Assembly (NCBI GenBank): GCA_030615855.1
Contig: JAUWYL010000015.1
Location: 1-31,322 of the forward strand
Origin: a bacterium
GTDB lineage: Bacteria > UBP18 > UBA7526
Direction: 5' to 3'
Length of the DNA: 31,322 nt
Of this stretch, positions 3,686 to 26,925 are shown one piece after another. Numbering within the stretch: the first letter of the stretch is position 1; each line of letters begins with the position of its first letter. The notes beneath the pieces are model-generated. The model was not told the DNA's origin and did not search any database. It saw only the letters and a program-made list of their open reading frames with translations. The position numbers and the translations under genes were made by a program.

Positions 3686-4084
3686 TTAGGATTTCACAAA
3701 TTGAAGACCATAACAAACCTTGCCGTAAAATTCTTTAATTTTTCCCACCCTGACATTCAGTTTCATCCCTATCTTTGGTTTATCCACCAATAATCGTCCC
3801 GATGCTCTTATACCGTTCTCAAACTCAACCAGGCCAAAGTCCAGATAGCGCTGATCAAATCCTATTGGTAAGTTCCAGAGTCTGGTATAAGTTAGAAGTT
3901 TGCAAGAACCTTTTAAAGGGGTCTTTTCCCAAGGTTTATATCCTTCTCTCTGGAAATTCGGTTCAATTTCCTGCTCCGGATAGCGCCGATATCCACATTT
4001 TTTACACCGCATTGGGGCGGGATAATGGAGCTGTCCGCATTTAGGACATTTGTAAGCATAGACATTTTTATCTACTCTATACAT
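3686..4084 (-). CDS. DUF35 family protein (Zn-ribbon + OB-fold), partner of thiolase-like protein
   Basis: 132 aa; CPKCG..(x)..CKKCG zinc ribbon followed by OB-fold-like region; 3 nt downstream of thiolase-like gene (classic thiolase/DUF35 pairing); SD AAAGGAG. Confidence 0.7.
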   Translation of the reverse strand: MYRVDKNVYAYKCPKCGQLHYPAPMRCKKCGYRRYPEQEIEPNFQREGYKPWEKTPLKGSCKLLTYTRLWNLPIGFDQRYLDFGLVEFENGIRASGRLLVDKPKIGMKLNVRVGKIKEFYGKVCYGLQFVKS

Positions 4085-4087
4085 TTA

Positions 4088-5311
4088 CTACTCCTTTGCC
4101 AAAATGGTAGCTACAACATTGTTTCCAAATCCTCCAAAATTGATCGCCAGACCATATTTTGGATTCTTAACCTGGCGGCCTTTCTCAGCTTCACTTCGCA
4201 GTTGCTTTACCAGTTCATGTATTTGAGAAATACCGGTGGCCCCCACAGGATGACCTTTGGCCTTCAATCCTCCGGAAGGATTAATTGGTAATCTCCCGGA
4301 AACTTCAGTTTCACCTTTCTCAGCTGCTTCGATTGCCTTACCCTTTTCAAAGAAACCAACCTCTTCAGCAAGACAAAGTTCCAAAATTACAAAGGCATCG
4401 TGAAGTTCAGCAAAAGAAATATCTTGAGGTCCGATACCGGCCATTTTATAAGCCATCTCAGCAGCCAGGCGAACAGCTTTTAAATCCAAAGGATCTTTTC
4501 TATTGTGAACGCAATGGGTGTCGGTAGCGGAACCAATACCGGCAATTCGTACTGGTTTCTTTTTAAATCTCGCAGCCCCATCCATAGCACACATCACAAC
4601 AGAAGATGCTCCATCTGAAACAGGGCACATATGATATAACCGCAAAGGTTCTGAAACGTAAGAATTGACAACAGAAGCATGGCAACTATCTGCAATCCCT
4701 TCCATGGTCACTGGTAATTGGACATGAGCAAAAGGATTTTTTTCTGCATTTAGATGGTCTTTTACGGCAATTAAAGATAACTGTCTTTCTGTCAGACCAT
4801 ATTTAGCCATATAAGCTCTGGTAAACATGGCTGCAAAAGCCGGTAAAGTCAGGCCATAAGGATATTCAACTTCTGGATGAGATAACGTGGCTACAAAATC
4901 TGTTGCTTCCCACCCAGTAACTCTTCGCATCTGCTCTCCCGCAGTGACCAGCACAACATCAACCATTCCAGAGACGATAGCCATATAGCCCATCTTGAAT
5001 GCTGAGGAACCCGAGGCCGGGCCATTGCTGACTAATTCAGCCATTGCCGGTTCCAGATTAAGCGTAGAAACCAGTGCAGATTCAATTCCTGTCTGATGAT
5101 TCAACATACCTGCTCCCATGTTGCCCACGATAACCTGGTCGATCCCCCCATCAATACCAGCATCTTCCATGGCATTTAGCGAGGCATAGGCCATGATATC
5201 GACCAGTTCATAATCACTAAGATTGCCAAATTTGGTATGTCCAATTCCTACTACCCCTACTTTTCTCACCCCGTTAGAAGTTTTTTCTTTTAAAAGTTGT
5301 TTTTTCTTCAT
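4088..5311 (-). CDS. Thiolase-like protein (SCP-x / nonspecific lipid-transfer-type thiolase)
   Basis: 407 aa; C-terminal thiolase motifs 'NPSGGLKAKGHPVGATG'; SD GGAG upstream of ATG 5309-5311. Confidence 0.75.
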   Translation of the reverse strand: MKKKQLLKEKTSNGVRKVGVVGIGHTKFGNLSDYELVDIMAYASLNAMEDAGIDGGIDQVIVGNMGAGMLNHQTGIESALVSTLNLEPAMAELVSNGPASGSSAFKMGYMAIVSGMVDVVLVTAGEQMRRVTGWEATDFVATLSHPEVEYPYGLTLPAFAAMFTRAYMAKYGLTERQLSLIAVKDHLNAEKNPFAHVQLPVTMEGIADSCHASVVNSYVSEPLRLYHMCPVSDGASSVVMCAMDGAARFKKKPVRIAGIGSATDTHCVHNRKDPLDLKAVRLAAEMAYKMAGIGPQDISFAELHDAFVILELCLAEEVGFFEKGKAIEAAEKGETEVSGRLPINPSGGLKAKGHPVGATGISQIHELVKQLRSEAEKGRQVKNPKYGLAINFGGFGNNVVATILAKE

Positions 5312-5325
5312 AGTTTCTCCGGTGC

Positions 5326-5350
5326 CCCATTAGAACTTCTAACGGGGCTC
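5326..5350 (-). other. Intercistronic RNA hairpin (11-bp stem, 1 mismatch) overlapping the GNAT-like stop, immediately 5' of the thiolase SD
   Basis: GCCCCATTAGAA-ct-TCTAACGGGGC; no U-tract follows, so not an intrinsic terminator. Confidence 0.4.
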
Positions 5351-6083
5351 ATCTGTGCCACCCTGGTATTTGGGGATACTCTTCCGGGAGAATGAGAGTA
5401 TCCGATGTTTTCAAAAGTTCTTCTGGCACCGGACGGGTTCCAGTAACCAATCTCTCTTTTGCAGCGAAATAAAGATCCCTGGTCAGAACATAGGTAGGAA
5501 CTCCTCCTAATTCGTGTTGAACATGAAATCTGGGCTCGAGTTGATATTCAATCATCCATCTTCGAAAGCCGATAGGACTTTCAGCCACAATAAACACTTC
5601 TTTCTGATTCAGGATCTCTATGTGGTATTCCATCTTTGCAGCGAACATTTGTGCTCCACAACGAAGGCCTCTCTTTATAGTCATGGTGTGATAACTCATA
5701 CCTAAATCATCATTAACAAGCCGTCCATTACAGATACTTGTGACAACCCCATCTATCGTTCCTACAAGACAATACTCATCACGAACCCGGTAACGGAAGA
5801 ACCCCAACAGTTCGGCATAAAAGCGGGCCGCCACAATATCATAGAAGTCCTTCTCTACCTTTATCAAAGGTTCTATCACTTCAAGAAGCAAAGGAATTTC
5901 TTCTCTTTTTGCCTGCCGGATCACCATTTTTTCTCCAGAAGCCATGGTAATGAATTTGGCTGGATAAGGTAGCATTTCTTTTTGAGGTGGCCGGAGCTTC
6001 ATCTCCAATTCATAAGCGATGTTCATAAACGCCTCCTTTGGTTTCCAATCTCCTTCACGGTTAACTTCTTCTCCATCTTCCAC
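5349..6083 (-). CDS. Hypothetical protein, possible GNAT-like acyl-CoA N-acyltransferase fold
   Basis: 244 aa; weak GNAT motif-A-like segment 'IKRGLRCGAQMFAAKMEY'; GTG start (alternative internal starts possible). Confidence 0.35.
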   Translation of the reverse strand: MEDGEEVNREGDWKPKEAFMNIAYELEMKLRPPQKEMLPYPAKFITMASGEKMVIRQAKREEIPLLLEVIEPLIKVEKDFYDIVAARFYAELLGFFRYRVRDEYCLVGTIDGVVTSICNGRLVNDDLGMSYHTMTIKRGLRCGAQMFAAKMEYHIEILNQKEVFIVAESPIGFRRWMIEYQLEPRFHVQHELGGVPTYVLTRDLYFAAKERLVTGTRPVPEELLKTSDTLILPEEYPQIPGWHR

Positions 6084-6204
6084 CTCCTCATTTTACAATG
6101 AACATTGAACATTTCACACTGCTCACTTTCCCACTTTCACACCTGCTCTTCGGCAGTCATTGCTTAATATTTATGCTCTCTCGGATGCCAGCTAAGCGCA
6201 TCCG

Positions 6205-7596
6205 TCATCTACGTCTAAGGTATTTGTTTATTGCCTGGGCGGCCCTCTTTCCATGTCCCATGGCATCGATCACCGTGGGCTCGCCCGGTATTATGTCTCC
6301 CCCCGCGAAGACTCCCGGGATAGAGGTGGCCCCATCCTTATCCACCAAAATATGGCCCTTAGGAGTGGTCTTCAGACTTGGGGTATAAGAAGGTAACAGA
6401 GGATTGGGCCCCTGGCCTATGGCTACCACTACCGTATCTACTTCCATCATAAACTGAGAACCCTCAATGGGTAAAGGCCTTCTCCTCCCACTCTCATCGG
6501 GCTCCCCCAATCTCATTCGGGTACACTCCATCCCTCTGACCCATCCCCTTTCATCTCCCAAGAAACGTATGGGCAAGGTCAGGAGTTTTATTCCTACTCC
6601 CTCTTCCTTAGCATGCTCTATCTCCTCCTGGCGAGCAGGCATCTCTTGTTCACTCCTTCGATAAGTAATGGTTACTTCTTCTGCTTCCAGGCGCTGGGCA
6701 ACCCGGGCAGCATCAAAAGCCACGTTTCCTCCCCCGATCACCGCCATCCTCCTTCCCTTTCTAACTGGGGTGTCGTACTCTGGAAACCTGTGGGCCTTCA
6801 TCAAGTTGACACGGGTCAGGAATTCATTCGCCGAATAGATACCATTCAAATTCTCTCCCGGGATGTTTAGAAAGCGAGGGAGCCCAGCCCCAGTGCCGAT
6901 AAAGACGGCCTTATATCCTTGCTCGAATAAATCCTTAAGAGTAAATACCTTGCCTATGAGCATATTGGTCTGGATCTCTACCCCCAGCCTTTTTATTCCC
7001 TCGATTTCAAAGTCCAGAACTCCTTTGGGCAATCTAAAGCCCGGGATCCCATACCTCAAGACCCCTCCTGGAAAATGCAAAGATTCGAATATGGTTACTC
7101 TATACCCTGATTTGGCCAGGTCGGCTGCTGCGGTCAACCCTGCCGGACCAGAACCCACCACCGCCACTTTTACATTTTTGAGTTTTGAGTTTTGCCCGCC
7201 CCGCTTCGCGGGGCGAGGCCGGGGAGTTTTGAGTTTAATATTCTGTGACTTGCCCCAGTCGGCAACAAACCTCTCCAACTTCCCAATGGCTAAAGGTTCT
7301 CCTTTTTTACCCAGAATACATTGGACCTCGCACTGGGTCTCCTGGGGGCAGACCCGACCGCAGATGGCGGGCAGGTTATTCTTCTCCCACAGGAGATTGA
7401 GGGCAGAATCGAACCTTCCCTCCTTTATATGAAGAGTGAATCCCGGGATGTCTATCCCTACCGGACATCCCTCCTTACAGGGTGCCGGGGAACATATCAG
7501 ACATCTACTGGCCTCTTCCCTTGCCCCTTCTGCGCTATATCCCAGGGCTACCTCTGCGAAGTTCCTAATCCTCTCCTCTGGCCTCTGCCTGGGCAT
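6205..7596 (-). CDS. NADPH-dependent glutamate synthase beta-subunit-like oxidoreductase (NfnB/SudA/GltD family)
   Basis: N-terminal Fe-S Cys cluster (CLICSPAPCKEGCP...CGRVCPQETQCEVQC), FAD/NAD Rossmann 'VAVVGSGPAGL' and 'VIGGGNVAFD'; start taken at internal ATG (7594-7596) giving 'MPRQRPEERIRNFAEV', which matches the SudA/NfnB N-terminus; ORF-track start is 7620; contains in-frame palindromic mini-insertion at ~7177-7238. Confidence 0.8.
   Translation of the reverse strand: MPRQRPEERIRNFAEVALGYSAEGAREEASRCLICSPAPCKEGCPVGIDIPGFTLHIKEGRFDSALNLLWEKNNLPAICGRVCPQETQCEVQCILGKKGEPLAIGKLERFVADWGKSQNIKLKTPRPRPAKRGGQNSKLKNVKVAVVGSGPAGLTAAADLAKSGYRVTIFESLHFPGGVLRYGIPGFRLPKGVLDFEIEGIKRLGVEIQTNMLIGKVFTLKDLFEQGYKAVFIGTGAGLPRFLNIPGENLNGIYSANEFLTRVNLMKAHRFPEYDTPVRKGRRMAVIGGGNVAFDAARVAQRLEAEEVTITYRRSEQEMPARQEEIEHAKEEGVGIKLLTLPIRFLGDERGWVRGMECTRMRLGEPDESGRRRPLPIEGSQFMMEVDTVVVAIGQGPNPLLPSYTPSLKTTPKGHILVDKDGATSIPGVFAGGDIIPGEPTVIDAMGHGKRAAQAINKYLRRR
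7177..7238. repeat. In-CDS mini-insertion: GAGTTTT direct repeats flanking GC-rich hairpin GCCCCGC-TTC-GCGGGGC
   Basis: Read directly; encodes 'KLKTPRPRPAKRGGQNSKLKN' immediately before the 'VAVVGSGPAG' Rossmann motif of the NfnB-like protein. Confidence 0.8.
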
Positions 7597-8431
7597 TCTC
7601 ACCCTTAAGTTCTTCCTCATATCTCTCCAGGGCTATCCTCTCCTCTTTTGTGAACCTTTTCTCCCGGACCAAAAGCTCATCGAAATCCACCAGCTCTCCT
7701 GGAAATTCTGGACCGTGGACGCAGACGAACCTATTCTCTTCTCCTACTCGTACACGACAGCTTCCACACATCCCAGTGCCATCCACCATGATGGTATTGA
7801 GGCTTACCGTAGTGGGAATTTTCTCCTTTTTAGTGATCTCACAGACCTTCTTCATCATGATCAAAGGTCCTATAGCCAGGACCTGATCCATCCTTTTCTT
7901 CTGGGCGATCAATCTCTCCAGGATATCGGTTACCAGGCCCTTCTCTCCATAGGAACCATCGTCAGTAGTGATATAGATCTCCTGGCTTAGATCCTTCATC
8001 TCTTTCTCTAAGATAATGAGCTCCTTAGTCCTAGCTCCCAGGATGGTGGTAATCCTATTCCCGGCCTCTTTTAGCGCTCTTGCAATAGGAACTAAGGGAA
8101 TGATCCCGATGCCCCCTCCAATAGTAAGCACCTCCCCATACTTCTCTATAGAGGTAGGTTTCCCCAAAGGGCCCAAAAGATCCGGGAGGGAATCCCCCAC
8201 CTTCAGGGTAGAGAGCTTCTTGGTAGTCTTTCCCACCTCCTGGAAGATGATGGTTATCCTGTCTTGGGTCCCATCCGCCTCATAGATGGTCAAGGGGATC
8301 CGTTCTCCCTGCTCATCGATTCTCAGGATGACGAATTGACCGGGCAGGGCTTTCTTAGCGATGAGGGGGGCCTCTATTTGGAATAGAGTGATCTCTGGCG
8401 CCACTCTTTTCTTGGCTACTATTTTGTTCAT
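7565..8431 (-). CDS. Ferredoxin-NADP+ reductase subunit alpha-like (NfnA/SudB/PyrK family; FAD + 2Fe-2S)
   Basis: 288 aa; PyrK-like FAD/NAD domain and C-terminal 2Fe-2S Cys motif 'GMCGSCRV...CVHGPEF'; 3' end overlaps start of NfnB-like gene. Confidence 0.8.
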   Translation of the reverse strand: MNKIVAKKRVAPEITLFQIEAPLIAKKALPGQFVILRIDEQGERIPLTIYEADGTQDRITIIFQEVGKTTKKLSTLKVGDSLPDLLGPLGKPTSIEKYGEVLTIGGGIGIIPLVPIARALKEAGNRITTILGARTKELIILEKEMKDLSQEIYITTDDGSYGEKGLVTDILERLIAQKKRMDQVLAIGPLIMMKKVCEITKKEKIPTTVSLNTIMVDGTGMCGSCRVRVGEENRFVCVHGPEFPGELVDFDELLVREKRFTKEERIALERYEEELKGENAQAEARGED

Positions 8432-8477
8432 CTTATCTAATCTTCAAGGGTTAGGAGGGGATAGAGGAGGAATATTG

Positions 8478-8630
8478 ATGTATCGGAGTATGGGCGTATT
8501 GGGGTATCGGTGTATCGGAGTGTCGGTGTAATGGTGTAAGTGAATATTTTTCTTTTTTACTCCCACACTCCACTACTCCCCTACCCCGTTACTCCCTTAC
8601 CCATCCTCACCCGTCCTTACCCTTCTCCTC
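8478..8630. repeat. Strand-asymmetric intergenic repeat region: G/T-rich (TATCGGAGT/GGTGTAAGTG units), then A/T centre, then C/T-rich (ACTCC/TTACCC units)
   Basis: Between NfnA-like start and aminotransferase stop; the two halves are loosely reverse-complementary. Confidence 0.7.
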
Positions 8631-9803
8631 TTAAAGTTTAGAGAGGCCAGCCTCAATTTTTTCCAGGCCCTTCTTTATATTCTCAATGGAGGTAGCATAG
8701 GAGAGTCGGATATAGCCCTCTCCATATTCACCGAAAGAGGTCCCAGACAAAACAGCTACCCCTGCTTCATTCAAAAGATAATCCGCCAATTCCTGGGATT
8801 TCTTTCCCGTCTGAGTAATATTGGGGAAGACGTAGAAGGCGCCAAGGGGGTTACGACAGCTAATCCTGGGAATCTTATTCAAACCCTCAACAATGACATC
8901 TCTCCTTTTTTTGAACTCAGCCACCATTTTATTTACAGCATCCTGTGGCCCATTGATGGCCTCTATTCCGGCAATCTGAGTGAAGGTTGCCGTGCAGGAG
9001 TTGGAGTTGGTCATTAACTTAGTAACCTTCTCGGCGATCCCTTTATTCATCACCCCATATCCTAATCTCCAACCAGTCATGGCATAGGTCTTGGAGTGGC
9101 CCTCTAAGATAATGGTCCTCTCCTTCATCCCGGGAAAGGAGACAATGGAATGATGCTCCCCCCCATAGATGATGCGAGAATATATCTCGTCAGATAGAAC
9201 CAAGAGATCATTGGTCACAGCGACCTTGGCAATCTCCTCAAGATCTTCTTTGGGAATAACCCCTCCAGTGGGATTGGCTGGAGAGTTCAGAACGATCATC
9301 TTTGTCTTTTTGGTGATCCTCTCCTCCAGATCTTTGATATCGAAGACGAATCCCTTCTCCTCCTTTATGGGAATGGGAACTGCCTTGGCTCCCACGAAGT
9401 TGATCATCGATTCATAGATAGGATAAGCCGGATTGGGATATAGGACCTCATCCCCTTCATCGATACAAGCTAAGATAGAAAAGAATAGGATGGGCTTTCC
9501 CCCGGGAGTGACTACCACTTCCTCTGGATCAACGGAGATATTCCTGGTCTTTGAGATATATTTGGCAAAGCACTCCCTTGCCTCCCACAATCCAGCAGAG
9601 GGACCGTAGTGGGTCTTATTCTCTCTGATTGCTTTAATGCCTGCTTCCTTGATATTCTCTGGAGTATCGAAATCCGGCTCACCGATCTGTAGATGAACGA
9701 TCTCCTTCCCTTCTCTCTCCAAAGCCTTGGCCTTTGCTAAGACCTCGAAGGCGGTCTCTGTTCCAATCCTGGACATCCTCTTAGCGATCATCTCCTTCTT
9801 CAT
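8631..9803 (-). CDS. Class I/II pyridoxal-phosphate aminotransferase (aspartate aminotransferase-like)
   Basis: 390 aa; PLP-Lys box '[13 protein letters not shown]', 'NPANPTG'; strong SD GGAGGAG; ATG overlaps glyA stop (ATGA). Confidence 0.8.
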
Positions 9804-11044: not shown

Positions 11045-11056
11045 CTAATCTCCCTA

Positions 11057-11122
11057 ACACGGATTAGCACAGATTAGAAAAAACAGATTAGCACAGATTT
11101 AATCCGTGCCTATCCGTGTCTA
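11057..11122. repeat. CACGGAT/ATCCGTG-family inverted tandem array (abuts the DERA stop codon)
   Basis: 'ACACGGATTAGCACAGATTAG...CAGATTAGCACAGATT' then 'AATCCGTGCCTATCCGTGTCTAAT'. Confidence 0.75.
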
Positions 11123-12007: not shown

Positions 12008-12035
12008 TCTTCCTCCACGTGATTTCCAAGCATAT

Positions 12036-12096
12036 CGTTTACCGTTAACCCGCTTCGCTGTTTACCGTTTACCGTAAACCGTTAACCGTAAACCTG
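12036..12096. repeat. ACCGT-family tandem heptamers (TTTACCG/TAAACCG/TTAACCG)
   Basis: 'CGTTTACCGTTAACCCGCTTCGCTGTTTACCGTTTACCGTAAACCGTTAACCGTAAACC' between BMV1 stop and DERA start. Confidence 0.75.
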
Positions 12097-12099
12097 CTT

Positions 12100-12369
12100 T
12101 CATTCCATGTCGATGCGGTCTATTACTCCTGCGATAAAAGTCCTCACGGGAATATCTGGATTGCCGAATGCCTGACGGGCAGAGTTTCCCTCATCGATGA
12201 CCAGGACCGTCTCCCCAAAGCCGGCATAACCCTGATCCACGGCCATCAGGGAATTCCCCTCAGGCTTTAGTTTTTTATTCAGAGGTTGAACAATTAAGAG
12301 CCTATTCCCTTCCAGGTGCTTATTCTTCCTGGTAGCTACCACTACCCCGGTTACTTTAGCTATTAACAT
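12100..12369 (-). CDS. BMC vertex (pentamer) protein, EutN/CcmL/PduN family
   Basis: 89 aa; 'MLIAKVTGVVVATRK...LLIVQP' typical PF03319 N-terminus; SD AAGGGAG. Confidence 0.85.
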   Translation of the reverse strand: MLIAKVTGVVVATRKNKHLEGNRLLIVQPLNKKLKPEGNSLMAVDQGYAGFGETVLVIDEGNSARQAFGNPDIPVRTFIAGVIDRIDME

Positions 12370-12381
12370 TCTTCACTCCCT

Positions 12382-12669: not shown

Positions 12670-12701
12670 TCTATCACCCCCTTTCAATCATTCTTCTAGG
12701 C

Positions 12702-12830
12702 TGTCACGAAACTCGTTCCAGCCTATGATTACACAGATTCTAAAAAGATTACGCAGATTTTACCGACGAGTATTTGATCTGTGTAATCTAAATTTTAATG
12801 GGTGTAATAAAGGACGACACTTTTGTGACG
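12702..12830. repeat. Nested inverted repeats: 12-bp perfect IR GATTACACAGAT(12727-12738)/ATCTGTGTAATC(12777-12788) with third direct copy GATTACGCAGAT; outer imperfect IR TGTCACGAAA/TTTTGTGACG
   Basis: Read directly; lies upstream of the SH3-lipoprotein gene and downstream of BMV2. Confidence 0.75.
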
Positions 12831-12836
12831 CCCTAA

Positions 12837-13115: not shown

Positions 13116-13164
13116 AGGCTCCTTCCAGTCGCGCTTCAAGCCATACACTTAGGAAGCGGTGAAT

Positions 13165-13235
13165 CGGAGATCCTCTTTCTCCGCATCCTTATATCCCTCT
13201 ATTACCGTTTCTCCCTTTCTCCGTCTCTCCGTTTC
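13165..13235. repeat. Hairpin CGGAGA-tcctctt-TCTCCG plus tandem CCGT(T/C)TCTC units
   Basis: Read directly, between RpiB stop and BMV2 start. Confidence 0.6.
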
Positions 13236-13255
13236 AACATTCCTACAGCCTGTGG

Positions 13256-13789: not shown

Positions 13790-13794
13790 TCTTC

Positions 13795-14028
13795 TTACTC
13801 TTTTATAATTTTGATTCTGAATTCCAGGGCCCTATCCCGGGCAAAAGGGGTGATGATGGCATCCCTGGGAACCCTTAATTCCTTGCATCCCTGCTTTGCC
13901 GCCTTAAGCATCACCTCTTCATTAACGAGCATCCTCTTCGTCCCACGGGGAGAAGTTACCTTCCCCTTTCCAGCCAACTCCTTCTGGACCTCTTCAGTAA
14001 CGATTTGAATCAACTTCTCTTTATCCAT
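13795..14028 (-). CDS. Small hypothetical protein with N-terminal encapsulation-peptide-like helix (BMC-associated, no recognisable catalytic domain)
   Basis: ~77 aa from ATG 14026-14028 (SD GGAG 8 nt upstream; ORF-track GTG start at 14037); 'MDKEKLIQIVTEEVQKEL' amphipathic helix then Gly/Lys linker and ~45 aa C-terminal module '...KELRVPRDAIITPFARDRALEFRIKII'. Confidence 0.5.
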   Translation of the reverse strand: MDKEKLIQIVTEEVQKELAGKGKVTSPRGTKRMLVNEEVMLKAAKQGCKELRVPRDAIITPFARDRALEFRIKIIKE

Positions 14029-14050
14029 TTCGCTCACTCCGTTCGCTCAA

Positions 14051-14151
14051 TACGCTGATTACCGCTGATATACTGCACTGATTGCCGCTGATTATCTGCG
14101 GTCATCTGCGTCTTTTTTCCATATCTCTCCTCGCCATCTGCGTCTATCTGC
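14051..14151. repeat. Tandem GCTGAT(T/A) x4 followed by ATCTGCG x4 around a T-rich centre
   Basis: Read directly, between PduT stop and the small EP-protein start. Confidence 0.7.
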
Positions 14152-14705: not shown

Positions 14706-14728
14706 TTCATCCTCGTTTCACTCGGATA

Positions 14729-14816
14729 GTTTACAGTTTATCCGCTCGGCCTTTGGCCTCGCTGTTTACTGTTAACCGTCTTTTACCGTAAACCGTACAC
14801 CGTTAACCGTAAACCC
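14729..14816. repeat. ACCGT-family array containing dispersed block TTTACCGTAAACCGTACACCGTTAACCGTAAACC
   Basis: Upstream of PduT start; 23-27 nt identical to copies at ~25787-25815 and ~26901-26925. Confidence 0.8.
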
Positions 14817-14840
14817 TATCTTGCTGGTTACTGCTCACTG

Positions 14841-16163
14841 TTATGCTTCGATAGTAATAGAGTCTCCGATATCGGTTATCTTTCCCTCTATTGAGGCATG
14901 AATCCTTGCTCCTAAGGCTCCTCTGGGAATATCGGCAATCAAATCTCCCACTTTTACTTTCTCATTCAACTTTACGGTCGGGATCGATTTTGCTCCCACA
15001 TGCTGAGAGAGAGAAATCCTGACAAGGTTCGTCCGATATTCTCTCTTCTCCAGAGGAGCATCAAGATTATATTCCTCTATTCCGATCCTTGAGATGATCC
15101 TCTCTGTAGGAACTTTGCGATACTCTATCATGGAATGGGCTTCCTCCGGAGCCTCCTTATGGGGATTCTTAACCTTGGCCTCTGTCAGTTCCTTTTTAAT
15201 CTCCTGATTCACCCTGAGTGGTGATAGTCCAAAAGGACAAGCATATAGATTACATAAACCGCATTCTGAACAGAGGAAAGCAGCGGTGATGTCATTCAAT
15301 TCCTTTCTCATTTCATACCCCACATGCCTCATTATCTTATGGGGTTTTAAGGAATGGCCGATTAAGTACCGGGGACAGAGTTCAGTGCAGTCGGTGCACT
15401 GCATACAGAGCATGGTCTTCCTGAGGATTTTTCTCATCTCCAGGGTCTTGTTCATAATGACCTGATGGTCTTTGGGCAGGACAATCAATCCCGTGGTGGT
15501 CTTCATTACTGGGGAATCCAAATCTTCAATCAGTTTCCCCATCATAGGTCCGCCATCCAAGACAGAAAAATCATTTATCTTTGGTTCAGCTAATCTTATT
15601 ACCTCTCCCACACTCATCCCCACGGGAACCTTCACTGACTTCGGTCCCTTCACCGCCCCGGATATTGTGAGATAGCGATGGGTGACCGGCCTTCTTTCTA
15701 TAGTATCTGCAACATTGATGAGGGTTCCCACATTATCCACCACCACTCCCACTTGTAGGGGAATTCCTCCCTCAGGGACGATCCTCTTCAATACCTCATA
15801 GACCAGTATCTGCTCATCACCCGCAGGATAGAAGTCACCAAGGATAAATAGTTCGATGTGGGATGGAGGATGTGGGATGTGGGATGTTAAAGCAGCGATG
15901 GCCTCTTTATATTTTTCTTTTAAAGCAATAAATCCCTTCTTGGCTCCCGTGGCCTCCATTACTAGCTTTAAACCCTTGATCACTTTGTTCGCTTGGGTAG
16001 CCATTAATTGCTGATCGATGCGCAAGAGAGGCTCACACTCCGCACCATTGGCGATGACATACTCTACCTTGGTCTCTAACTTCACATGGGTGGGGAAGCC
16101 CGCTCCCCCTGCTCCCACCACCCCAGCATCCCTTACTTTCTCAATAATCTCTTTCTTATTCAT
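14841..16163 (-). CDS. pduS: PduS/RnfC-like Fe-S flavoprotein (BMC-associated oxidoreductase)
   Basis: 440 aa; N-terminus 'VRDAGVVGAGGAGFPTHVKLE' as in PduS/RnfC; two ferredoxin motifs 'CMQCTDCTELCP' and 'CSECGLCNLYACP'; in-frame heptamer repeat (~15855-15886) encoding 'HIPHPPSHI'; my manual base count and the ORF track disagree by 1 nt at this start codon. Confidence 0.8.
   Translation of the reverse strand: MNKKEIIEKVRDAGVVGAGGAGFPTHVKLETKVEYVIANGAECEPLLRIDQQLMATQANKVIKGLKLVMEATGAKKGFIALKEKYKEAIAALTSHIPHPPSHIELFILGDFYPAGDEQILVYEVLKRIVPEGGIPLQVGVVVDNVGTLINVADTIERRPVTHRYLTISGAVKGPKSVKVPVGMSVGEVIRLAEPKINDFSVLDGGPMMGKLIEDLDSPVMKTTTGLIVLPKDHQVIMNKTLEMRKILRKTMLCMQCTDCTELCPRYLIGHSLKPHKIMRHVGYEMRKELNDITAAFLCSECGLCNLYACPFGLSPLRVNQEIKKELTEAKVKNPHKEAPEEAHSMIEYRKVPTERIISRIGIEEYNLDAPLEKREYRTNLVRISLSQHVGAKSIPTVKLNEKVKVGDLIADIPRGALGARIHASIEGKITDIGDSITIEA
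15855..15886. repeat. In-CDS tandem heptamer (GATGTGG)x4.5
   Basis: Encodes 'HIPHPPSHI' inside the PduS-like protein, in frame. Confidence 0.8.
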
Positions 16164-16224
16164 TCCGTCATTCCGTCATTCCGTCATTCCGTCAGTAAGT
16201 TAGACGGATAGACGGATTAGACGT
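16162..16224. repeat. (CATTCCGT)x4 tandem octamer followed by (GACGGATA)x2.5 near-reverse-complement units; includes the PduS start codon
   Basis: Read directly; on the mRNA strand gives ACGGAATG x4 immediately 5' of and including the ATG. Confidence 0.8.
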
Positions 16225-16249
16225 TTCCTTCAAAACTTAAAGTTTTTTA

Positions 16250-17703: not shown

Positions 17704-17789
17704 GCACGGATAATCACGGATTTCATACGGATGAGCACAGATTAAATCCGTGCTAATCTGTATTATTATCAGTGCTAATCCGTGTCTAA
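17704..17789. repeat. Phased CAC(G/A)GAT x4 then ATC(C/T)GTG x4 array (same family as 21443-21523)
   Basis: Unit starts approximately 17704/17714/17725/17735 and 17747/17757/17770/17780 (~10 bp phasing); spans BMV3 stop to AldDH start. Confidence 0.8.
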
Positions 17790-18076: not shown

Positions 18077-18100
18077 CTGTCTCCTCCTTATAGATTAGAA

Positions 18101-18166
18101 GTTTACAGTAGCCAGTTAACAGTAACCAGTCTTCTACTGTAAACTGTTCGCTGGTTACTGGTTACT
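18101..18166. repeat. GGTTACTG-family element: GTTTACAGT...CAGTAACCAG then ACTGTAAAC...CTGGTTACTG (unit / reverse-complement unit, order preserved)
   Basis: Exact 9- and 10-nt reverse-complement pairs at ~30 nt offset; between AckA stop and BMV3 start. Confidence 0.75.
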
Positions 18167-19370: not shown

Positions 19371-19403
19371 TTTTACCCCCTTTAAGGTTGGTATTAGTTA
19401 GCA

Positions 19404-19465
19404 GTGTACAGTTTACAGCAAAAAACTGGTTACTGTTCGCTGGTTACTGATTACTCTTTATCTTA
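19404..19465. repeat. GGTTACTG-family element (shares CTGTTCGCTGGTTACTG(G/A)TTAC with 18136-18166)
   Basis: Between PduL stop and AckA start. Confidence 0.75.
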
Positions 19466-19470
19466 ACTTT

Positions 19471-20136: not shown

Positions 20137-20153
20137 TAAAATACAGTATAATA

Positions 20154-20213
20154 GGTGGATTGGTTGGATTAGTTGGATTTAAAATCCACCTAATTTCCTA
20201 ATCCAACTAATTT
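20154..20213. repeat. GGATTAGTTGG-family element: GGTGGAT...AGTTGGATT then ATCCACC...AATCCAACT (order-preserved reverse-complement pairs)
   Basis: Between TPI stop and PduL start; related copy at ~30706-30740. Confidence 0.75.
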
Positions 20214-20222
20214 ACTCGGCGG

Positions 20223-20978
20223 CTATTTTTTATACTTAATGATCTGGGCAAAGGATTTAGCATCGAGGCTCGCTCCCCCCACTAAGGCGCCATCGATGTC
20301 CTCCTCCCTCATTAAATCAGAGATATTCTCTGGCTTGACGCTTCCTCCATATTGGATTCTAACCTTAGCGGCAGTAACCTCATCATAGAGTTCGTTTAAA
20401 AGTCCTCTAATGAAGGAGTGAACCTCTTGTGCCTGATCTGGGGTGGCGGTCTTTCCGGTTCCAATGGCCCATACCGGCTCATAGGCAATGACTATCTTCA
20501 GTATCTCTTCCCGGGATAGGCCTTCCAGTCCCCGGGTGATATGTTCTCTCACCACCCCTTCGGTCACTCCCCTCTCCCTCTCCTCTAACCTTTCTCCCAC
20601 ACACATTATAGGTGTAAGGCTAAACTTTAGAGCCGTCTTTACCTTCCTATTCACTGATTGATTCGTTTCAGCGAAGAACTGCCTCCTCTCCGAGTGACCA
20701 ATGATGACGTATCTGCAGCCCACACCAGTGAGCATCCCTGGTGAAACCTCTCCCGTATAGGCCCCCTTCTCCTCCCAGTAGACATCCTGAGCACTGAGAA
20801 AAATGTTCGTCCCTCGAATGGCCTTGCCCACCGCAAAGAGAGAAGTAAAAGGAGGACAGACTACAATGTCAAGATCGTTGACCTTGGCGACCTCGGACTT
20901 TAATTTAGTCACTAAGTCCAGGGACTGGTCGATGGTCTTATTCATCTTCCAGTTCCCGGCAATTATCGGCCGGCGCAT
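20223..20978 (-). CDS. tpiA: Triosephosphate isomerase
   Basis: Start taken at ATG 20976-20978 (SD AGAGGAGGAG) giving 'MRRPIIAGNWKMNKT'; 'AYEPVWAIGTGKTAT', 'GGASL'; the ORF-track N-terminal extension runs into the repeat array. Confidence 0.9.
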   Translation of the reverse strand: MRRPIIAGNWKMNKTIDQSLDLVTKLKSEVAKVNDLDIVVCPPFTSLFAVGKAIRGTNIFLSAQDVYWEEKGAYTGEVSPGMLTGVGCRYVIIGHSERRQFFAETNQSVNRKVKTALKFSLTPIMCVGERLEERERGVTEGVVREHITRGLEGLSREEILKIVIAYEPVWAIGTGKTATPDQAQEVHSFIRGLLNELYDEVTAAKVRIQYGGSVKPENISDLMREEDIDGALVGGASLDAKSFAQIIKYKK

Positions 20979-20994
20979 AAACTCCTCCTCTAAA

Positions 20995-21131
20995 CACAGA
21001 TTCACACAGATAAGAGACAGATTCACACAGATCACAGATATTTAATAGCATCCGAATTCCAAAAAATTCTAATATCGAATTTTATAATCTGTGATCTGTG
21101 GCCATCTGTAAACAATCTGTGATGATCTGTG
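20995..21131. repeat. Large symmetric array: CACAGAT x5 (~10 bp phased), then 46-bp A/T-rich centre with GAATT repeats, then ATCTGTG x5
   Basis: rc(CACAGAT)=ATCTGTG exactly; spacer lengths are nearly mirrored (3,4,3,0 vs 0,3,4,2); between BMC-H stop and TPI start. Confidence 0.85.
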
Positions 21132-21422
21132 CTATTTACCAGGAGTGATGGGCATTACCCCTTCCAGATCCGGATGAGGTCGGGGAATGACGTGGACGCT
21201 TATCAGTTCTCCTACTTTCTGGGCAGCACTGGCTCCCGCATCGCAGGCTGCCTTGCAGGCGGCAACGTCACCCCTCACCAAGGTAGTGACATAGCCGGCT
21301 CCGATCTTCTCCCAGCCCACGAGATTCACCTTGGCGGCCTTGATCATGGCATCTGTAGCCTCGATAAGGGTTACCAGTCCCTTGGTCTCAATCATCCCCA
21401 GCGCTTCTCTTGCTTCTACCAT
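21132..21422 (-). CDS. BMC-H hexameric shell protein (PduA/EutM type, PF00936)
   Basis: Start taken at ATG 21420-21422 (SD AGAGGAGGTG) giving '[30 protein letters not shown]...'; the ORF-track extension to 21476 runs into the upstream repeat array. Confidence 0.85.
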
Positions 21423-21442
21423 TTTCTTCACCTCCTCTAATA

Positions 21443-21523
21443 CACGGATAATCACAGATTCTTTACGGATGGTCACGGATCAAATCCGTGCTAATCCGTG
21501 TTGTTATCCGTGCTAATCCGTGT
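21443..21523. repeat. Phased (C/T)AC(G/A)GAT x4 then ATCCGTG x4 array upstream of the BMC-H gene
   Basis: Unit starts approximately 21443/21453/21463/21473 and 21484/21494/21506/21516; between DGC stop and BMC-H start. Confidence 0.85.
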
Positions 21524-23317
21524 CTATTTACTTTTAAAGAGGCAGACCTTATTTCTTCCTTCTCTTTTAGCGCGATATAAAGATTGGTCTGCCTGGCCGA
21601 TTAGTACCTCCTTACGCATACCCTTCTTATAACCGGCCACCCCAATACTCATCGTAATCTTGACTCTCTTCTTCTTTCCTTTTAGAAAATCAAAGCCCTG
21701 GACCTTCTTCCGCAGGCGTTCTGCCAAGAGACAGGCTCCCTTAGCATCCGTCTCGGGTAGGATAAGGGCGAATTCCTCTCCTCCGTAGCGGGCAGCGATA
21801 TCCGCTCCCCTTATAGCTTGCTTTAAGAGACGGGCGATATTCACTAAAACCGTATCCCCCGCTGGATGGCCATAGGTATCGTTAAATCTTTTGAAGTGAT
21901 CAATATCTAACATAAGCAAGGATAATGGAGTCTCATAACGTTTGGCCTTCCCCATCTCCTGCTCCAGGTAATTCTGAAAGAAGGTATGGGCATAGAGACC
22001 GGTCAATCCATCGTGAATCGCCTGCTCATATAGCATAGCATTCTGGATGGCTATCGCAGCATGGCTTGCCAGGGTAGATAGGAGCTCCTCGTCCCGGCGA
22101 ATGAACGGCTGGCGGGAGACCTTATTGGAGAGGGTAATCACTCCCACCCCCTCTCCCTTAGCCACCAGGGGAAGAGCGAGTAAAGTCTCTGTCCTATGTA
22201 ATTTCTTCTCTGTCTTTAGAGTCTTATAGCGTCGATCCCTTAAGGTATCATTGATTACCATGAGTTTCTTCTTCTCAAAGACGCTACCGGCAATCCCTTC
22301 CCCTATCTTTAGCCTCAGGTGTTTCCTGGCCTCCTCACTTATCCCTGTACCATAAGCGATATAGAGCCTCTTTTTCTTCTCGTGCCAGAGCATGAGGGAT
22401 CCCTTCTCCACCTGAGCCACCTCCATGAATAATCCTACGATGAGCCTCAAAAGTTCTTCCCTCTCCAGGTTGGAACTTATCTTTGTCGAGAGTCTTTGAA
22501 GCATCTGAAGATCCAGGACCCTCTGGTCAAGCTCCTCCTTTGCTCTGGCTAAGAGAGTGCTCTTCTCCTCAAGCGATCTCCAGCTCTGAGAGAGCCTCTT
22601 CCCCATCTGGTTAAATACCTCTCCCAATTCCCCCACCTCATCTCGAGAGGTGATCCTCACCCTGGCTCCCAGATCTCCCTTACCAATTTTCTTGGCAGCT
22701 TGAACTAACCTCTTTATCGGTCGGGTAATGCTGGCTGCCAGGAATAAGGAGATGACGATCCCTAGGATGAGCAGGCCAATGGTCAGAAGAAAGATGCGAT
22801 CTCGAATCTCAGCGATCCTTGCTTTTAAGAGGAGAGAGGAGAATCCCACCCTTACCAGGCCGATCCTTCTTTTTCCAAGAAGAATAGGAACTGCGACATC
22901 GTATACTCCCTCTTCTGTAATCTGTGAGAGGGTGGTCCTTGCTCCCTGGGCCTTGAGGCTCAAGTCATCACTCAAGGTCTTGCCCACCAGGCTCTTATTC
23001 GTGTGGGCCATGACCTCTCCAATATCATTCAAAATGATGACATAATCGATATCCTCACCCTTCTTGCCTATTCCCTCCACTATCTGGGCCAAGGTGATGT
23101 AATCATTGGATAGGATGGCCGTGGTGGAGGTGGTGGCCAGAGCATTGGTAATGTCCTTGGCCCTCTTGATCATCTGGTCAGTGGCCGTTCCCTCCTCCCT
23201 TTTGAGAGTGATACCAGCCACTAAGGACATGATGATCACGATGATCATAATCACAAATCCAGCAATCTTTCCTGCTAAACTAACTTTCATCTGTTTAGAA
23301 GTATCCCGGGCTGACAA
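21524..23317 (-). CDS. Membrane sensor diguanylate cyclase (TM - extracytoplasmic sensor - TM - HAMP - GAF - GGDEF)
   Basis: 597 aa; two hydrophobic segments flanking a ~150 aa sensor region, HAMP-like region, GAF-like region, GGDEF with 'RYGGEEFALIL'; TTG start with SD GGGAGG (alternative ATG at 23288-23290). Confidence 0.8.
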   Translation of the reverse strand: MSARDTSKQMKVSLAGKIAGFVIMIIVIIMSLVAGITLKREEGTATDQMIKRAKDITNALATTSTTAILSNDYITLAQIVEGIGKKGEDIDYVIILNDIGEVMAHTNKSLVGKTLSDDLSLKAQGARTTLSQITEEGVYDVAVPILLGKRRIGLVRVGFSSLLLKARIAEIRDRIFLLTIGLLILGIVISLFLAASITRPIKRLVQAAKKIGKGDLGARVRITSRDEVGELGEVFNQMGKRLSQSWRSLEEKSTLLARAKEELDQRVLDLQMLQRLSTKISSNLEREELLRLIVGLFMEVAQVEKGSLMLWHEKKKRLYIAYGTGISEEARKHLRLKIGEGIAGSVFEKKKLMVINDTLRDRRYKTLKTEKKLHRTETLLALPLVAKGEGVGVITLSNKVSRQPFIRRDEELLSTLASHAAIAIQNAMLYEQAIHDGLTGLYAHTFFQNYLEQEMGKAKRYETPLSLLMLDIDHFKRFNDTYGHPAGDTVLVNIARLLKQAIRGADIAARYGGEEFALILPETDAKGACLLAERLRKKVQGFDFLKGKKKRVKITMSIGVAGYKKGMRKEVLIGQADQSLYRAKREGRNKVCLFKSK

Positions 23318-24536
23318 AGCCCGCCTCCCTTCCCTCTGGAGTAATTCTCAAAGAGCCAAACTGAATAATCCTTATTCTTCCTCCATCTTTAACTGGAGTG
23401 GATAAGAGGACTTCCTTCTTCCTGTAGTCGATCTCATCTATCCTTCCCATTCCTAAGGTATCGCCTTTTTCATCCAAGAGGCCCACCAGTATTCCCTTCT
23501 CGTCTCCAGCAACGATGCTTCTGATATTTCCCAATTCTTTACCCAGCTCATTCAATCTCTCTTGAGGAAGAGGCTTTTGGGTAACAACCAATGTTCCTTC
23601 AAAGCCAGATAGTCTCTCGGCATAAAGAGTCCCGGGAATTTTCATCTCTCTTCCTGTCCTGAAGTAACACCTATCAGTTGCTATTCTCTCCAGGGGAAGT
23701 CTAATCTTCCTGGCCCCTTTAAAATACCTTGTGCTGGGCAGTTCCCTCAACTTCTTCCTCTCCCCCTCACTAGTAAAAGAGGCCTTCTTCGAAACATGAA
23801 TCCGAACGATCTTTTTGGGAGCATAACCCTTAATCAGATGTTCCAACTCGTTCGTCCTCTGTAAAAGAACAATGATCTCTGGAGAGAGGATTTCGATTTT
23901 CGCCCTCTTGAGCGCCCGCCCTCCATCGCTCTGTACCCAGCCTGTGGTATTGATAATGACCGTATTCGCTTTTTTCAAACCAGCCTCTACCAATCGCTTG
24001 ATTCCCACAATAGTGGGTAAAAAGTGCAGGCCTGGGGAATGGGAGCCCACGAAGTAGATGGCAGAAATGCGGGCTTCTTTCAAAAAGACCACCTGTTTCT
24101 TTAAAACCGCCAACCCCAAAGTGCCTGGGATACCGATGTCGCTCTGGCCCGGATCACCATCCAGGACCGCCGGCCTCACTCCCTTCTCCAGGAGCTTATT
24201 CGCTAAATAGGTGGCGAAGAAGGTCTTTCCCGTATCCACCTCCCCCAGAACGAGAATTGTTCTGGCTTTTTCTTTTACAATGCGGGAGATAAGATCATCC
24301 CAGGAGGAAGGGATAGTTCTCTCTTTAATTTTCCTTATCTCGCCAGGCCTCTTTACTTCTATAGAAAGAGTGGATTTTTCTTCGGCCTCTAAAGGAATGG
24401 TCTTGCCCGGAGGAATAAAGACCTCTTCATTTTCTTCGACACTCTTTCCCACCGCCTCTATCTTTCCCCTCTTTACTCTTACCTTTCCCGGCCCTTTCAG
24501 GATATAGATATCACCTTTCTTTACCTTATATTCCAT
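23295..24536 (-). CDS. Clp1/Grc3-family polynucleotide 5'-hydroxyl kinase-like P-loop protein
   Basis: 413 aa; N-terminal beta-rich domain, Walker A 'GEVDTGKT', family-typical 'DGDPGQS' (DxDxGQ) motif, C-terminal domain; strong SD GGGAGG; 3' end overlaps DGC start. Confidence 0.65.
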   Translation of the reverse strand: MEYKVKKGDIYILKGPGKVRVKRGKIEAVGKSVEENEEVFIPPGKTIPLEAEEKSTLSIEVKRPGEIRKIKERTIPSSWDDLISRIVKEKARTILVLGEVDTGKTFFATYLANKLLEKGVRPAVLDGDPGQSDIGIPGTLGLAVLKKQVVFLKEARISAIYFVGSHSPGLHFLPTIVGIKRLVEAGLKKANTVIINTTGWVQSDGGRALKRAKIEILSPEIIVLLQRTNELEHLIKGYAPKKIVRIHVSKKASFTSEGERKKLRELPSTRYFKGARKIRLPLERIATDRCYFRTGREMKIPGTLYAERLSGFEGTLVVTQKPLPQERLNELGKELGNIRSIVAGDEKGILVGLLDEKGDTLGMGRIDEIDYRKKEVLLSTPVKDGGRIRIIQFGSLRITPEGREAGFVSPGYF

Positions 24537-24554
24537 CCTTTACCTCCCTTTCTT

Positions 24555-24620
24555 TATTCGTGTCAATTCGTGTTCTACTTCTTTCGTCTACCCTTTATAG
24601 TTCGCGTTGATTCGTGTTCT
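24555..24620. repeat. ATTCGTGT(TC) tandem/dispersed units spanning the 3' end of the small Lys-rich gene and the intergenic spacer
   Basis: Five units read directly; partly coding (encodes '...EHESTRT...'). Confidence 0.7.
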
Positions 24621-26799: not shown

Positions 26800-26818
26800 T
26801 TTTCTCACTCCGTTCGAG

Positions 26819-26925
26819 GGTTTACTGTTGACCGTTTACGGTAAAAAAAACCGCCTCTCGTTTTCACTCGAGACTGGGCGATCCTGAATGAAATGAAGGA
26901 CCGTACACCGTTAACCGTAAACCTT
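26819..26925. repeat. ACCGT-family element: GTTTACTGTTGACCGTTTACGGT...(A)8...GACCGTACACCGTTAACCGTAAACC
   Basis: 23-nt identity with ~14794-14816; upstream of the TIM-barrel gene. Confidence 0.75.

Follow-up and report, generated by a model that had tools for sequence, protein, structure and literature searches.

Paired inverted arrays of short tandem words have been described in Geobacter metallireducens, where they were listed as putative global regulator binding sites, with IHF/HU-type binding proposed and insertion sequence (IS) elements found inserted at a fixed distance from the paired arrays (Aklujkar et al. 2009, BMC Microbiol 9:109; PMC2700814), and in Xanthomonas, where 70–75 convergent GGGAATC array pairs were found per genome (Rehm et al. 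2015, PLoS One 10:e0144275; PMC4692102). Here, arrays of comparable architecture are examined in a 31,322-nucleotide (nt) stretch of a bacterium of the GTDB lineage UBP18 (UBA7526; GenBank assembly GCA_030615855.1, contig JAUWYL010000015.1, positions 1 to 31,322; hereafter the window), in which two such arrays bracket the gene for a BMC-H shell protein of a bacterial microcompartment (BMC). Each is a tandem-word palindrome, i.e., one arm holds 2–5 tandem copies of a 7–10-nt word and the other its reverse complement, ordered as a mirror image. The two focal arrays are probably copies from a genome-wide, dispersed population of such palindromes that behaves like repetitive extragenic palindromic (REP) sequences or MITEs (miniature inverted-repeat transposable elements), is tolerated between cistrons, and would exert at most a generic effect at the RNA level.

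As in Geobacter classes 1–3, the arrays are intergenic and also found within operons (proB/proA in Geobacter), with 3–5 tandem 7–9-mers that the opposite strand matches, at varying distance, with a like array, and with several families per genome. Words at window positions 13149–13255 (GACGGAGA) are reverse complements of the Geobacter class 2 consensus, TCTCCGTS, and TCAGAAT words at 3551–3750 of a relative designated L003 are those of the class 3 consensus, MTYCTGA. The Geobacter report is confined to alignment, without folding, turnover or cross-phylum analysis, and leaves the CACRGAT family of the focal arrays unmentioned; array density is also far higher here, with many spacers of the window occupied. 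The Xanthomonas GGGAATC arrays are likewise intergenic tandem heptamers with stem-loop or cruciform potential and a length that varies between related species. In contrast to the present arrays, they are G-rich, belong to a single word family and have been studied as G-quadruplex formers; retention in the same context is 83% between two Xanthomonas species versus 4 of 16 orthologous spacers here.

Every gene in the window lies on the minus strand. As this includes BMC-H, "upstream" and "downstream" are used below as in the first-pass annotation of this DNA. The focal features are as follows.

21132..21422, minus strand: BMC-H shell protein gene, 96 amino acids (PF00936, E = 3.7e-28)
21443..21523, minus strand: upstream array, in the GGDEF/BMC-H intergenic spacer
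20995..21131, minus strand: downstream array, in the spacer between BMC-H and the gene for triosephosphate isomerase (TIM)
21430..21442, minus strand: Shine-Dalgarno region of BMC-H (TTAGAGGAGGT), unpaired, directly 3' of the hairpin base
20979..20994, minus strand: Shine-Dalgarno region of TIM (TTTAGAGGAGGAGTTT), unpaired, 3' of the hairpin base

Read directly on the plus strand, the upstream array comprises CACGGAT at 21443, CACAGAT at 21453, TACGGAT at 21464 and CACGGAT at 21474, followed by a second arm of ATCCGTG at 21484, 21494, 21506 and 21516, with word spacings of 10, 11, 10 / 10 / 10, 12, 10. In the mRNA sense, four CACGGAT words (21522–21484) form the 5' arm, and a 3-nt loop separates them from a 3' arm of ATCCGTG, ATCCGTA, ATCTGTG and ATCCGTG (21480–21443); the whole reads TAG-A-CACGGAT-TAG-CACGGAT-AACAA-CACGGAT-TAG-CACGGAT-TTG-ATCCGTG-ACC-ATCCGTA-AAGA-ATCTGTG-ATT-ATCCGTG, then the Shine-Dalgarno sequence. 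The downstream array has CACAGAT at plus-strand positions 20995, 21005, 21026 and 21033 with the variant GACAGAT at 21016, an A/T-rich center of 47 nt (21040–21086), and ATCTGTG at 21087, 21094, 21115 and 21125 with the variant ATCTGTA at 21104. Its spacings are mirror-symmetric (10, 11, 10, 7 / 7, 10, 11, 10), and in the mRNA sense five CACAGAT-type words (21131–87), the loop (21086–21040) and five ATCTGTG-type words (21039–20995) follow one another. The earlier count of five words per downstream arm holds, as four exact words plus one variant rather than as five exact copies. Both focal arrays are positioned after a stop codon and before the next Shine-Dalgarno sequence: the TAG stop of BMC-H (21134–21132) immediately adjoins the first downstream-array word, and the TIM start codon occupies 20978–20976. 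Upstream, the neighbor of BMC-H encodes an sCache-HAMP-GAF-GGDEF protein; the downstream neighbor is TIM.

The window contains 34 copies of CACRGAT, compared to 5.3 ± 2.4 in shuffled sequences (shuffle maximum 11), and 15 of the 34 fall in the two focal arrays; the focal pattern is thus not due to chance. The sequence recurs identically over 1349 nt, both arrays included, in an independent assembly (L002; Logan SRR14872660), so that an assembly artifact is excluded and the presence of two palindromic CACRGAT-word arrays bracketing BMC-H, as first annotated, is real. The L002 contig (1349 nt) itself starts inside the upstream array and ends inside the array between TIM and PduL, as expected if further copies of the arrays in other parts of the genome disrupt assembly graphs. 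An adapter artifact was considered for plus-strand positions 21012–21022 (ATAAGAGACAG), which match 11 nt of the Nextera mosaic end, and was ruled out, the same array in L003 having ATAAGAAACAG and independent assemblies agreeing. Folding of the RNA yielded −55.8 kcal/mol for the downstream array (z-score −6.8) and −38.8 kcal/mol for the upstream array (z −6.3), with 0 of 200 shuffles as stable in either case. Both folds, in RNA or single-stranded DNA, are segmented hairpins of 6–8-base pair stems separated by internal loops, as the first-pass annotation had predicted. These are the best-preserved and strongest arrays within the window. The loop between the arms is variable, at 3 nt in the upstream array, 47 nt in the downstream array and ∼207 nt in L003.

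The same architecture recurs across the window regardless of the flanking genes, which speaks against the proposal that the focal arrays constitute a dedicated shell-stoichiometry device. Tandem Repeats Finder detected repeats of period 7–10 in most window spacers; 7 of 21 intergenic spacers, as compared to 1 of 1000 coding segments, passed a strict array test (two or more copies of an exact 6-mer, followed downstream by two or more of its reverse complement), and most spacers failing it still carry looser arrays. A fold with z ≤ −3 was obtained for 11 of 20 window spacers. Word families number more than ten within the 31 kb, their periods ranging from 7 to 10 nt, and array-flanking genes include those for aldolase, SHMT, PduL, acetate kinase (ackA), aldehyde dehydrogenase, an RnfC-like protein, BMC-P and BMC-T as well as genes outside the BMC cluster. 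Outside the focal pair, words of the CACRGAT family form the following arrays.

17708..17785, minus strand: paralogous CACRGAT palindromic array between the BMC-P (EutN) and aldehyde dehydrogenase genes; z −4.8
11045..11119, minus strand: a further paralogous CACRGAT palindrome, in the DeoC aldolase / SHMT spacer; z −4.7
12688..12836, minus strand: composite spacer between BMC-P and an SH3 protein gene, ACACAGAT / ATCTGYG words nested among other hairpins; z −6.3
24537–24574: CACRGAT direct-only half array

To follow the arrays among relatives, eleven syntenic loci were compared from the clade defined by the TIM protein (∼20 proteins at 80–100% identity). The next-best TIM matches, L004 and L005, were rejected as BMC orthologs and represent array-free housekeeping operons (gap-pgk-tpiA-secG). 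Collinearity with the window extends over 19.5 kb in L003 (metagenome-assembled genome JAUXAI01, CSMAG_2758), at 84–96% nucleotide identity, mostly 84–90%. Between these two loci, 4 of 16 orthologous spacers carry the same array family, and 12 carry a different family or none. The spacer between ackA and BMC-P measures 85 nt in the window versus 8 nt in L003, with an ATGA gene overlap, and the BMC-P/SH3 spacer (12688..12836) measures 149 nt versus 31 nt. The array at 18077..18161 is absent from L003, L219, L220 and L221, in which ackA and BMC-P overlap, while that at 19371..19470 is kept in L003 with one additional word. Across the 11 relatives, at least four fillings were found at the GGDEF/BMC-H junction and at least six at BMC-H/TIM:

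GGDEF/BMC-H, CACGGAT: window; L225 (only the inner half, a perfect (AAAGTAGG)x5 standing in place of the outer 5' words)
GGDEF/BMC-H, ACATTGA / CAGTAAC words: L001, L003, L222; remnants in L218
GGDEF/BMC-H, CGCGAAT words: L219, L220, L224
GGDEF/BMC-H, no spacer, genes overlap: L221
BMC-H/TIM, CACAGAT: window, L002, L003
BMC-H/TIM, ATCGC words: L001, L219
BMC-H/TIM, GATAYCAGAT: L223, L224, L225
BMC-H/TIM, GGTTACTA: L222
BMC-H/TIM, ACCAATAACC: L220
BMC-H/TIM, unrelated sequence: L218, L221

Conservation of the arrangement in relatives, the lack of which the first-pass annotation had named as a refutation, therefore largely fails. The upstream array is replaced in L001, L003, L218, L219, L220, L222 and L224, and L221 lacks the spacer; the downstream array, beyond the identical L002, is kept only in L003, with at least five other fillings elsewhere. 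At 18077, gene structure differs with array content. With the array, the acetate kinase ends in ..SKTKK* (window 18077–18161) and the TAA stop of ackA falls within the first CAGTAAC word; without it, the protein ends in ..TRGRRRRKK* (L003 11640–11700), the genes overlap by ATGA and the Shine-Dalgarno sequence lies within ackA. By this difference, the array has remodeled the gene end.

Copies of the same composite element occupy non-orthologous sites. The upstream array, the 17708 array, positions 4425–4545 of L003 and a copy in L199 align as whole units including their irregular spacers (...GTGACC-ATCCGT-AAAGA-ATCTGTG-ATT-ATCCGTG), and the L225 copy is also homologous to the upstream array unit. 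The L199 copy shares exact spacers with the upstream array and sits in a pilin locus on another contig. A ∼500-nt spacer in this pilin locus of a related organism (L199 500–1000) is packed with several other word arrays (AAAATGA, AATCAAAA, GTTTCTGT) and G+C hairpins, so the phenomenon reaches beyond the BMC locus. Similarly, an element of ∼115 nt with GTTTACGG/GTAAAC words, an inner module AACAGCGAGGCCAAAGGCCGAGCGG and a 3' CCGAGTGAAACGAGGATGA module extending to the start codon is 94% identical between window positions 14706–14840 (RnfC/BMC-T) and L003 15612–15730, a neighboring spacer. A further copy occurs at L003 11993–12109 (BMC-P/AldDH), the site orthologous to the window CACGGAT spacer at 17708, and the core of this element is also present in an Omnitrophota metagenome-assembled genome (L031). 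Nesting is seen in the L003 downstream array, whose loop holds a palindromic insertion of ∼160 nt, and in L199, where a 20-nt hairpin is inserted within one word. Signs of slippage are the perfect (AAAGTAGG)x5 of L225 and the difference in word copy number at 19371. TAG/TTAG stands at both ends of three copies but belongs to the repeat unit.

The CACRGAT family extends far beyond the lineage. An exact scan with CACRGATTAGCACRGAT matched at least 120 metagenome contigs of 27–69% GC from soils, sediments and guts; among those listed, 62 had reverse-complement words downstream, 3 had them upstream and 2 on both sides, and in 53 none were found, so that the polarity of the CACRGAT arms is fixed. 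Word-to-word spacing was 10 nt in 147 cases and 9 nt in 73 cases. Across 64 folded arrays, the fourth base (R/Y) covaries between arms (A-T 72, G-C 40, A.C 13, G.T 7; p = 1.6e-15). The 74 arrays with classified contexts (crude open reading frame [ORF] calls) comprised 41 co-directional, 17 convergent and 16 divergent cases, the last about the chance level; CACRGAT arrays are thus restricted neither to operons nor to 3' ends. Unannotated copies of the family are also present in Bacteroides finegoldii, Haliscomenobacter and Persicobacter, and one B. finegoldii copy (NZ_OY725947.1:16865–16933) follows a branched-chain amino acid aminotransferase gene and precedes a T-rich tract. Phages were rejected as vectors: only 14 viral contigs carried the CACRGAT 17-mer, most of them direct-only or coding, and the ACGGTAAAC inner module had no matches among viral sequences. 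Position-specific profiles around seed matches gave no signal, blurred by the mixture of 9- and 10-nt units. Full-text literature searches with the word sequences themselves found only primers.

The elements were further compared with other repeat systems. Like REP, BIME and REPIN sequences, which go with RAYT (Y1) transposase genes flanked by the same repeats, they are short extragenic palindromes of high copy number that are co-transcribed with operons, seem to disperse by a non-replicative-looking copy process and serve IS elements as targets. However, a REP is a single imperfect palindrome of 20–40 nt, as compared to 75–200 nt of tandem 7–10-nt words with internal loops here, and REPs have a GTAG or CGTC tag at one end (PMC3733652), whereas the ends here read ACACGGAT... 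and CACAGAT..., without a tag. Arrays of 7-nt words in short intergenic tandem runs, often directly upstream of start codons, are likewise found among the cyanobacterial STRR and TAACTGA repeats. TAACTGA direct arrays are known from Beggiatoaceae, Cyanobacteria and Bacteroidetes, and their patchy cross-phylum spread suggests horizontal transfer (MacGregor 2015; PMC4679880). They are nearly always direct (169 direct sets versus one indirect), whereas the elements here are mostly palindromic pairs. Rfam 15 gave no match to the window at gathering score and, at E ≤ 1, a single chance match (E = 0.88) in 20900–21600. MITEs (Correia/NEMIS, RUP, ERIC and Chunjie, for instance) are likewise small and non-autonomous, have inverted ends, insert between genes, even within operons, which they leave intact, and form RNA hairpins; their terminal inverted repeats correspond to those of a parent IS, and a target-site duplication flanks them. 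The present elements have terminal inverted repeats, the arms being inverted copies, but unlike MITEs the arms are internally tandem-repetitive, and neither a parent IS with corresponding ends nor a target-site duplication was identified in the loci compared. In the window and its relatives, they consist of paired inverted tandem arrays (4+4 and 5+5 words in the two focal arrays) that are intergenic, fall into several families and vary in arm distance. Given the deviation from REP size and tag and the lack of a demonstrable target-site duplication, Rfam match or terminator signature, they were filed as new members of a descriptive class, paired inverted tandem-heptamer-class arrays, which are REP/MITE-like in behavior and not members of those families.

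On the preferred reading of a dispersed population, elements are gained, lost and exchanged among spacers, nested and expanded by slippage on the time scale of ∼10% nucleotide divergence, and would spread through a copy mechanism or through recombination among spacers. They would persist in operons because they fill the space from the stop codon (or across it) to an unpaired Shine-Dalgarno sequence. Once co-transcribed, they would fold into very stable interrupted hairpins that could serve as a generic 3'-exonuclease barrier or processing point; any effect on the ratio of BMC-H to enzymes would be a side effect common to other array-bearing junctions. Several observations weigh against this reading. 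The BMC-H/TIM spacer (window 20982–21131) is the only operon junction that is long (92–314 nt) in all 11 relatives. In L221 it is long although most other junctions from TIM to BMC-T measure 0–27 nt, and there it contains neither words nor an unusual fold (z +0.7); this junction may be a real expression or transcription-unit boundary regardless of its repeat filling. In the downstream array, 1 of 70 stem positions differs between the window and L003, compared to ∼5 of 65 in loops and spacers, and the single stem change (A to G) retains a G.U pair in the sense strand; from these small numbers of aligned positions, slow stem change hints at constraint. No transposase, target-site duplication or excision footprint was identified (no transposase domain was found among the 20 of ∼30 window genes scanned against Pfam), and the comparison of filled and empty sites at 18077 is ambiguous for a target-site duplication or excision footprint. 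Finally, a conserved 7-nt core, a 9–10-nt unit and fixed polarity across phyla are easier to account for by sequence-specific recognition than by structure alone, and such recognition could be a host function rather than mobility.

Alternatively, the hairpins themselves could be under selection as RNA punctuation. In this softened form of the first-pass idea, each junction would need a stable intercistronic hairpin (stabilizer, processing site or partial terminator) to set relative cistron expression, selection would keep the hairpin while its sequence turns over, and the hairpins at BMC-H would raise the shell-to-enzyme ratio. The great stability of the folds with the Shine-Dalgarno sequences left free, the presence of a word-array palindrome of differing family at BMC-H/TIM in 8 of 10 other relatives, where the spacer is always long, and the better conservation of the downstream-array stem described above are consistent with this explanation. 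REPs, too, have been proposed to affect mRNA stability, termination and supercoiling (PMC2817692, PMC3733652 and PMC3116915), the second of these proposing them as mRNA stabilizers. Yet the explanation is unlikely in view of the absence of a sense-strand signal (36 G.U pairs in the sense versus 40 in the antisense strand, with similar fold energies), the chance-level occurrence of CACRGAT arrays in divergent spacers, the broken outer stem in L225, the overlapping genes that relatives have at several array-bearing junctions, and the ordinary structure of the L221 spacer. The sequences after the focal arrays (UAUUAGAGG and UUUAGAGG) lack a U-tract, so that neither array is terminator-like, and a scan of 20200–23400 found no terminator-like sites. 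Promoter-like matches in the A/T-rich loop were at chance (4 versus 3.1 expected). A three-frame stop cassette, in which stop codons in the words would shut every reading frame owing to periods not divisible by 3, was also considered and is unsupported, the first 33 nt of 70 spacers closing 1.64 frames versus 1.51 in shuffles. The strong version of the original proposal, an operator, stabilizer or attenuator dedicated to BMC-H and controlling shell stoichiometry, draws on the position of the two strongest arrays of the window on either side of BMC-H and on a downstream spacer that is long in every relative. It is highly improbable and already largely refuted by the relatives: enzyme genes, BMC-P, BMC-T and unrelated genes also have arrays of this and other families beside them, 8 of the 9 other relatives covering the upstream junction have lost the upstream array or carry another in its place (with gene overlap in L221), and the same array stands beside the pilin gene in L199 and after the aminotransferase gene in Bacteroides.

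Another explanation is recognition of the DNA duplex, with the arrays as iterated convergent sites, about one helical turn apart, for a nucleoid-associated or global regulator or for a transposase with multiple subterminal sites. The CACRGAT core is conserved in unrelated bacteria in units of 10 or 9 nt, its polarity is fixed (62 versus 3 among the matches listed), cores persist while the spacers between them vary, and IHF/HU-type binding and IS elements at a fixed distance are on record for the analogous Geobacter arrays (Aklujkar et al. 2009; PMC2700814). The helical phasing invoked at first pass does not generalize: the CACRGAT unit is 9–10 nt, but other window families have periods of 7, 8 and 9. 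The 31 kb hold over ten unrelated word families, of period 7, 8, 9 or 10, and these cannot have a dedicated operator protein each, and domain scans of the window genes found no candidate binding protein encoded adjacent to the arrays. Complementarity of the arms, including R/Y covariation, is unnecessary for an array of duplex sites, and arrays are dispensable at orthologous junctions. Overall, duplex binding appears quite doubtful as the basis of these arrays. At the other extreme, slippage in place combined with fold-back or template switching that copies an arm could yield such palindromes as a pure mutational by-product, with neither mobility nor function. This would fit the in-place (AAAGTAGG)x5 of L225, the copy-number change at 19371, direct-only half arrays such as 24537–24574, heptamer runs that also occur within genes, and the fact that, of the long simple repeats in prokaryotes, heptamer repeats are the most frequent (Mrazek 2007, as cited in PMC4679880). 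It is very unlikely to be the explanation, as composite elements with identical irregular spacers and inner modules recur at non-orthologous sites and in another locus or organism, and the same words appear across phyla with fixed polarity.

More speculatively, tandem-word palindromes might represent a pan-bacterial, previously unnamed intergenic class with shared 7-nt cores (CACRGAT, ACGGTAA, CAGTAAC, TCTCCGT, TCAGAAT and others), fixed polarity and modular nested evolution. A conserved host enzyme, or else a novel transposase acting on hairpins, would build and spread such a class in a sequence-specific manner, and cells would use its members interchangeably as stop-hairpin-Shine-Dalgarno punctuation between cistrons; this is put forward tentatively. 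For BMC biology, the outcome is negative, in that the arrays are not to be read as a shell-stoichiometry switch. For genome biology, many operon spacers in this lineage hold rapidly exchanging palindromes of tandem 7–10-nt words; the CACRGAT family reaches cultivable Bacteroides, and the comparable arrays of Geobacter (2009) and Xanthomonas (2015) were noticed and never explained. Non-orthologous copies, nesting, replacement and dispensability make it a testable question what builds or moves the elements and how they affect the fate of polycistronic mRNA. In practical terms, the arrays break short-read assemblies, as at the ends of L002, and can mislead motif-based regulon prediction.

Arrays of other word families in the window are as follows.

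14706..14840, minus strand: GTTTACGG / GTAAAC word palindrome with internal AACAGCGAGGCCAAAGGCCGAGCGG module, in the RnfC / BMC-T spacer
20137..20222, minus strand: GGATTAG / CTAATCC word palindrome between TIM and PduL; z −3.8
19371..19470, minus strand: CAGTAAC / GTTACTG-type word palindrome between PduL and acetate kinase
18077..18161, minus strand: CAGTAAC word palindrome between acetate kinase and BMC-P; z −4.5
16164..16249, minus strand: CCGTCTAA / GACGGAAT word palindrome of period 8 between the aldehyde dehydrogenase and RnfC/PduS-like genes; z −5.1
8432..8630, minus strand: palindrome, 199 nt long, built from degenerate 8-nt words (GGGAGTAA-type / ACTCCGATAC-type); −73 kcal/mol, z −5.7
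12008..12100, minus strand: palindrome of GTTTACGG / GTAAACGG words, upstream of the gene for DeoC aldolase
26809..26924, minus strand: GTTTACGG / ACCGTAAAC word palindrome enclosing a separate terminator-like hairpin, then T8
25681: further GTTTACGG / GTAAAC words
near 30800: further CAGTAAC words
14060: CGCAGAT / ATCAGCG words
13149–13255: GACGGAGA words

The hairpin and T8 nested in the 26809–26924 array read CGCCCAGTCTCGAGTGAAAACGAGAGGCGGTTTTTTTT, and a related ATCGCCCAGTCYCGAGTG motif occurs in the BMC-H/TIM spacer of L001. At 16164–16190, the 3' arm (GACGGAAT)x4 continues into the start codon of the RnfC-like gene; its final word contributes GGA...ATG, and the preceding words form short ATG...TGA mini-frames. 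The spacer at 5312–5348 holds a plain G+C hairpin without words. A module common to window 6084–6204 and L003 8573–8615 consists of a short hairpin (CGGATGC...GCATCCG or CCAATGC...GCATTGG) followed by AGAGAG(C/T)ATAAAT(A/T)TTAA; in the window it occupies a spacer and in L003 it lies within the nested insertion of the downstream-array loop, making it another small dispersed element.

Among the genes of the locus, RpiB, DeoC, TIM, PduL, aldehyde dehydrogenase and a PduS-like protein presumably point to a sugar-phosphate-utilizing BMC. In L225, genes for fumarase (two subunits), citrate synthase and an isocitrate/isopropylmalate dehydrogenase-family protein are inserted between PduL and acetate kinase (4801–8696). 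Two small genes that escaped the 90-amino acid cutoff were recognized: one at 13790–14059, between BMC-T and RpiB, for a conserved protein of ∼76 amino acids without a Pfam match in relatives, and one at 12100–12381 for a third EutN/CcmL (BMC-P) protein of ∼89 amino acids. An odd neighbor for a BMC locus is the Clp1/Grc3-type P-loop protein gene (PF16575, CLP1_P) at 23295–24536, which lies directly upstream of the GGDEF gene, overlaps it, and is conserved in position in every sufficiently long relative. Heptamer runs within genes comprise (CCGTTCA)x4.6 at 881–912, within ORF 44–1519, and (ACATCCC)x4.7 at 15855–15887 in the RnfC/PduS-like gene, which is translated as TSHIPHPPSHIE and kept in L003 except for two bases of one repeat unit.

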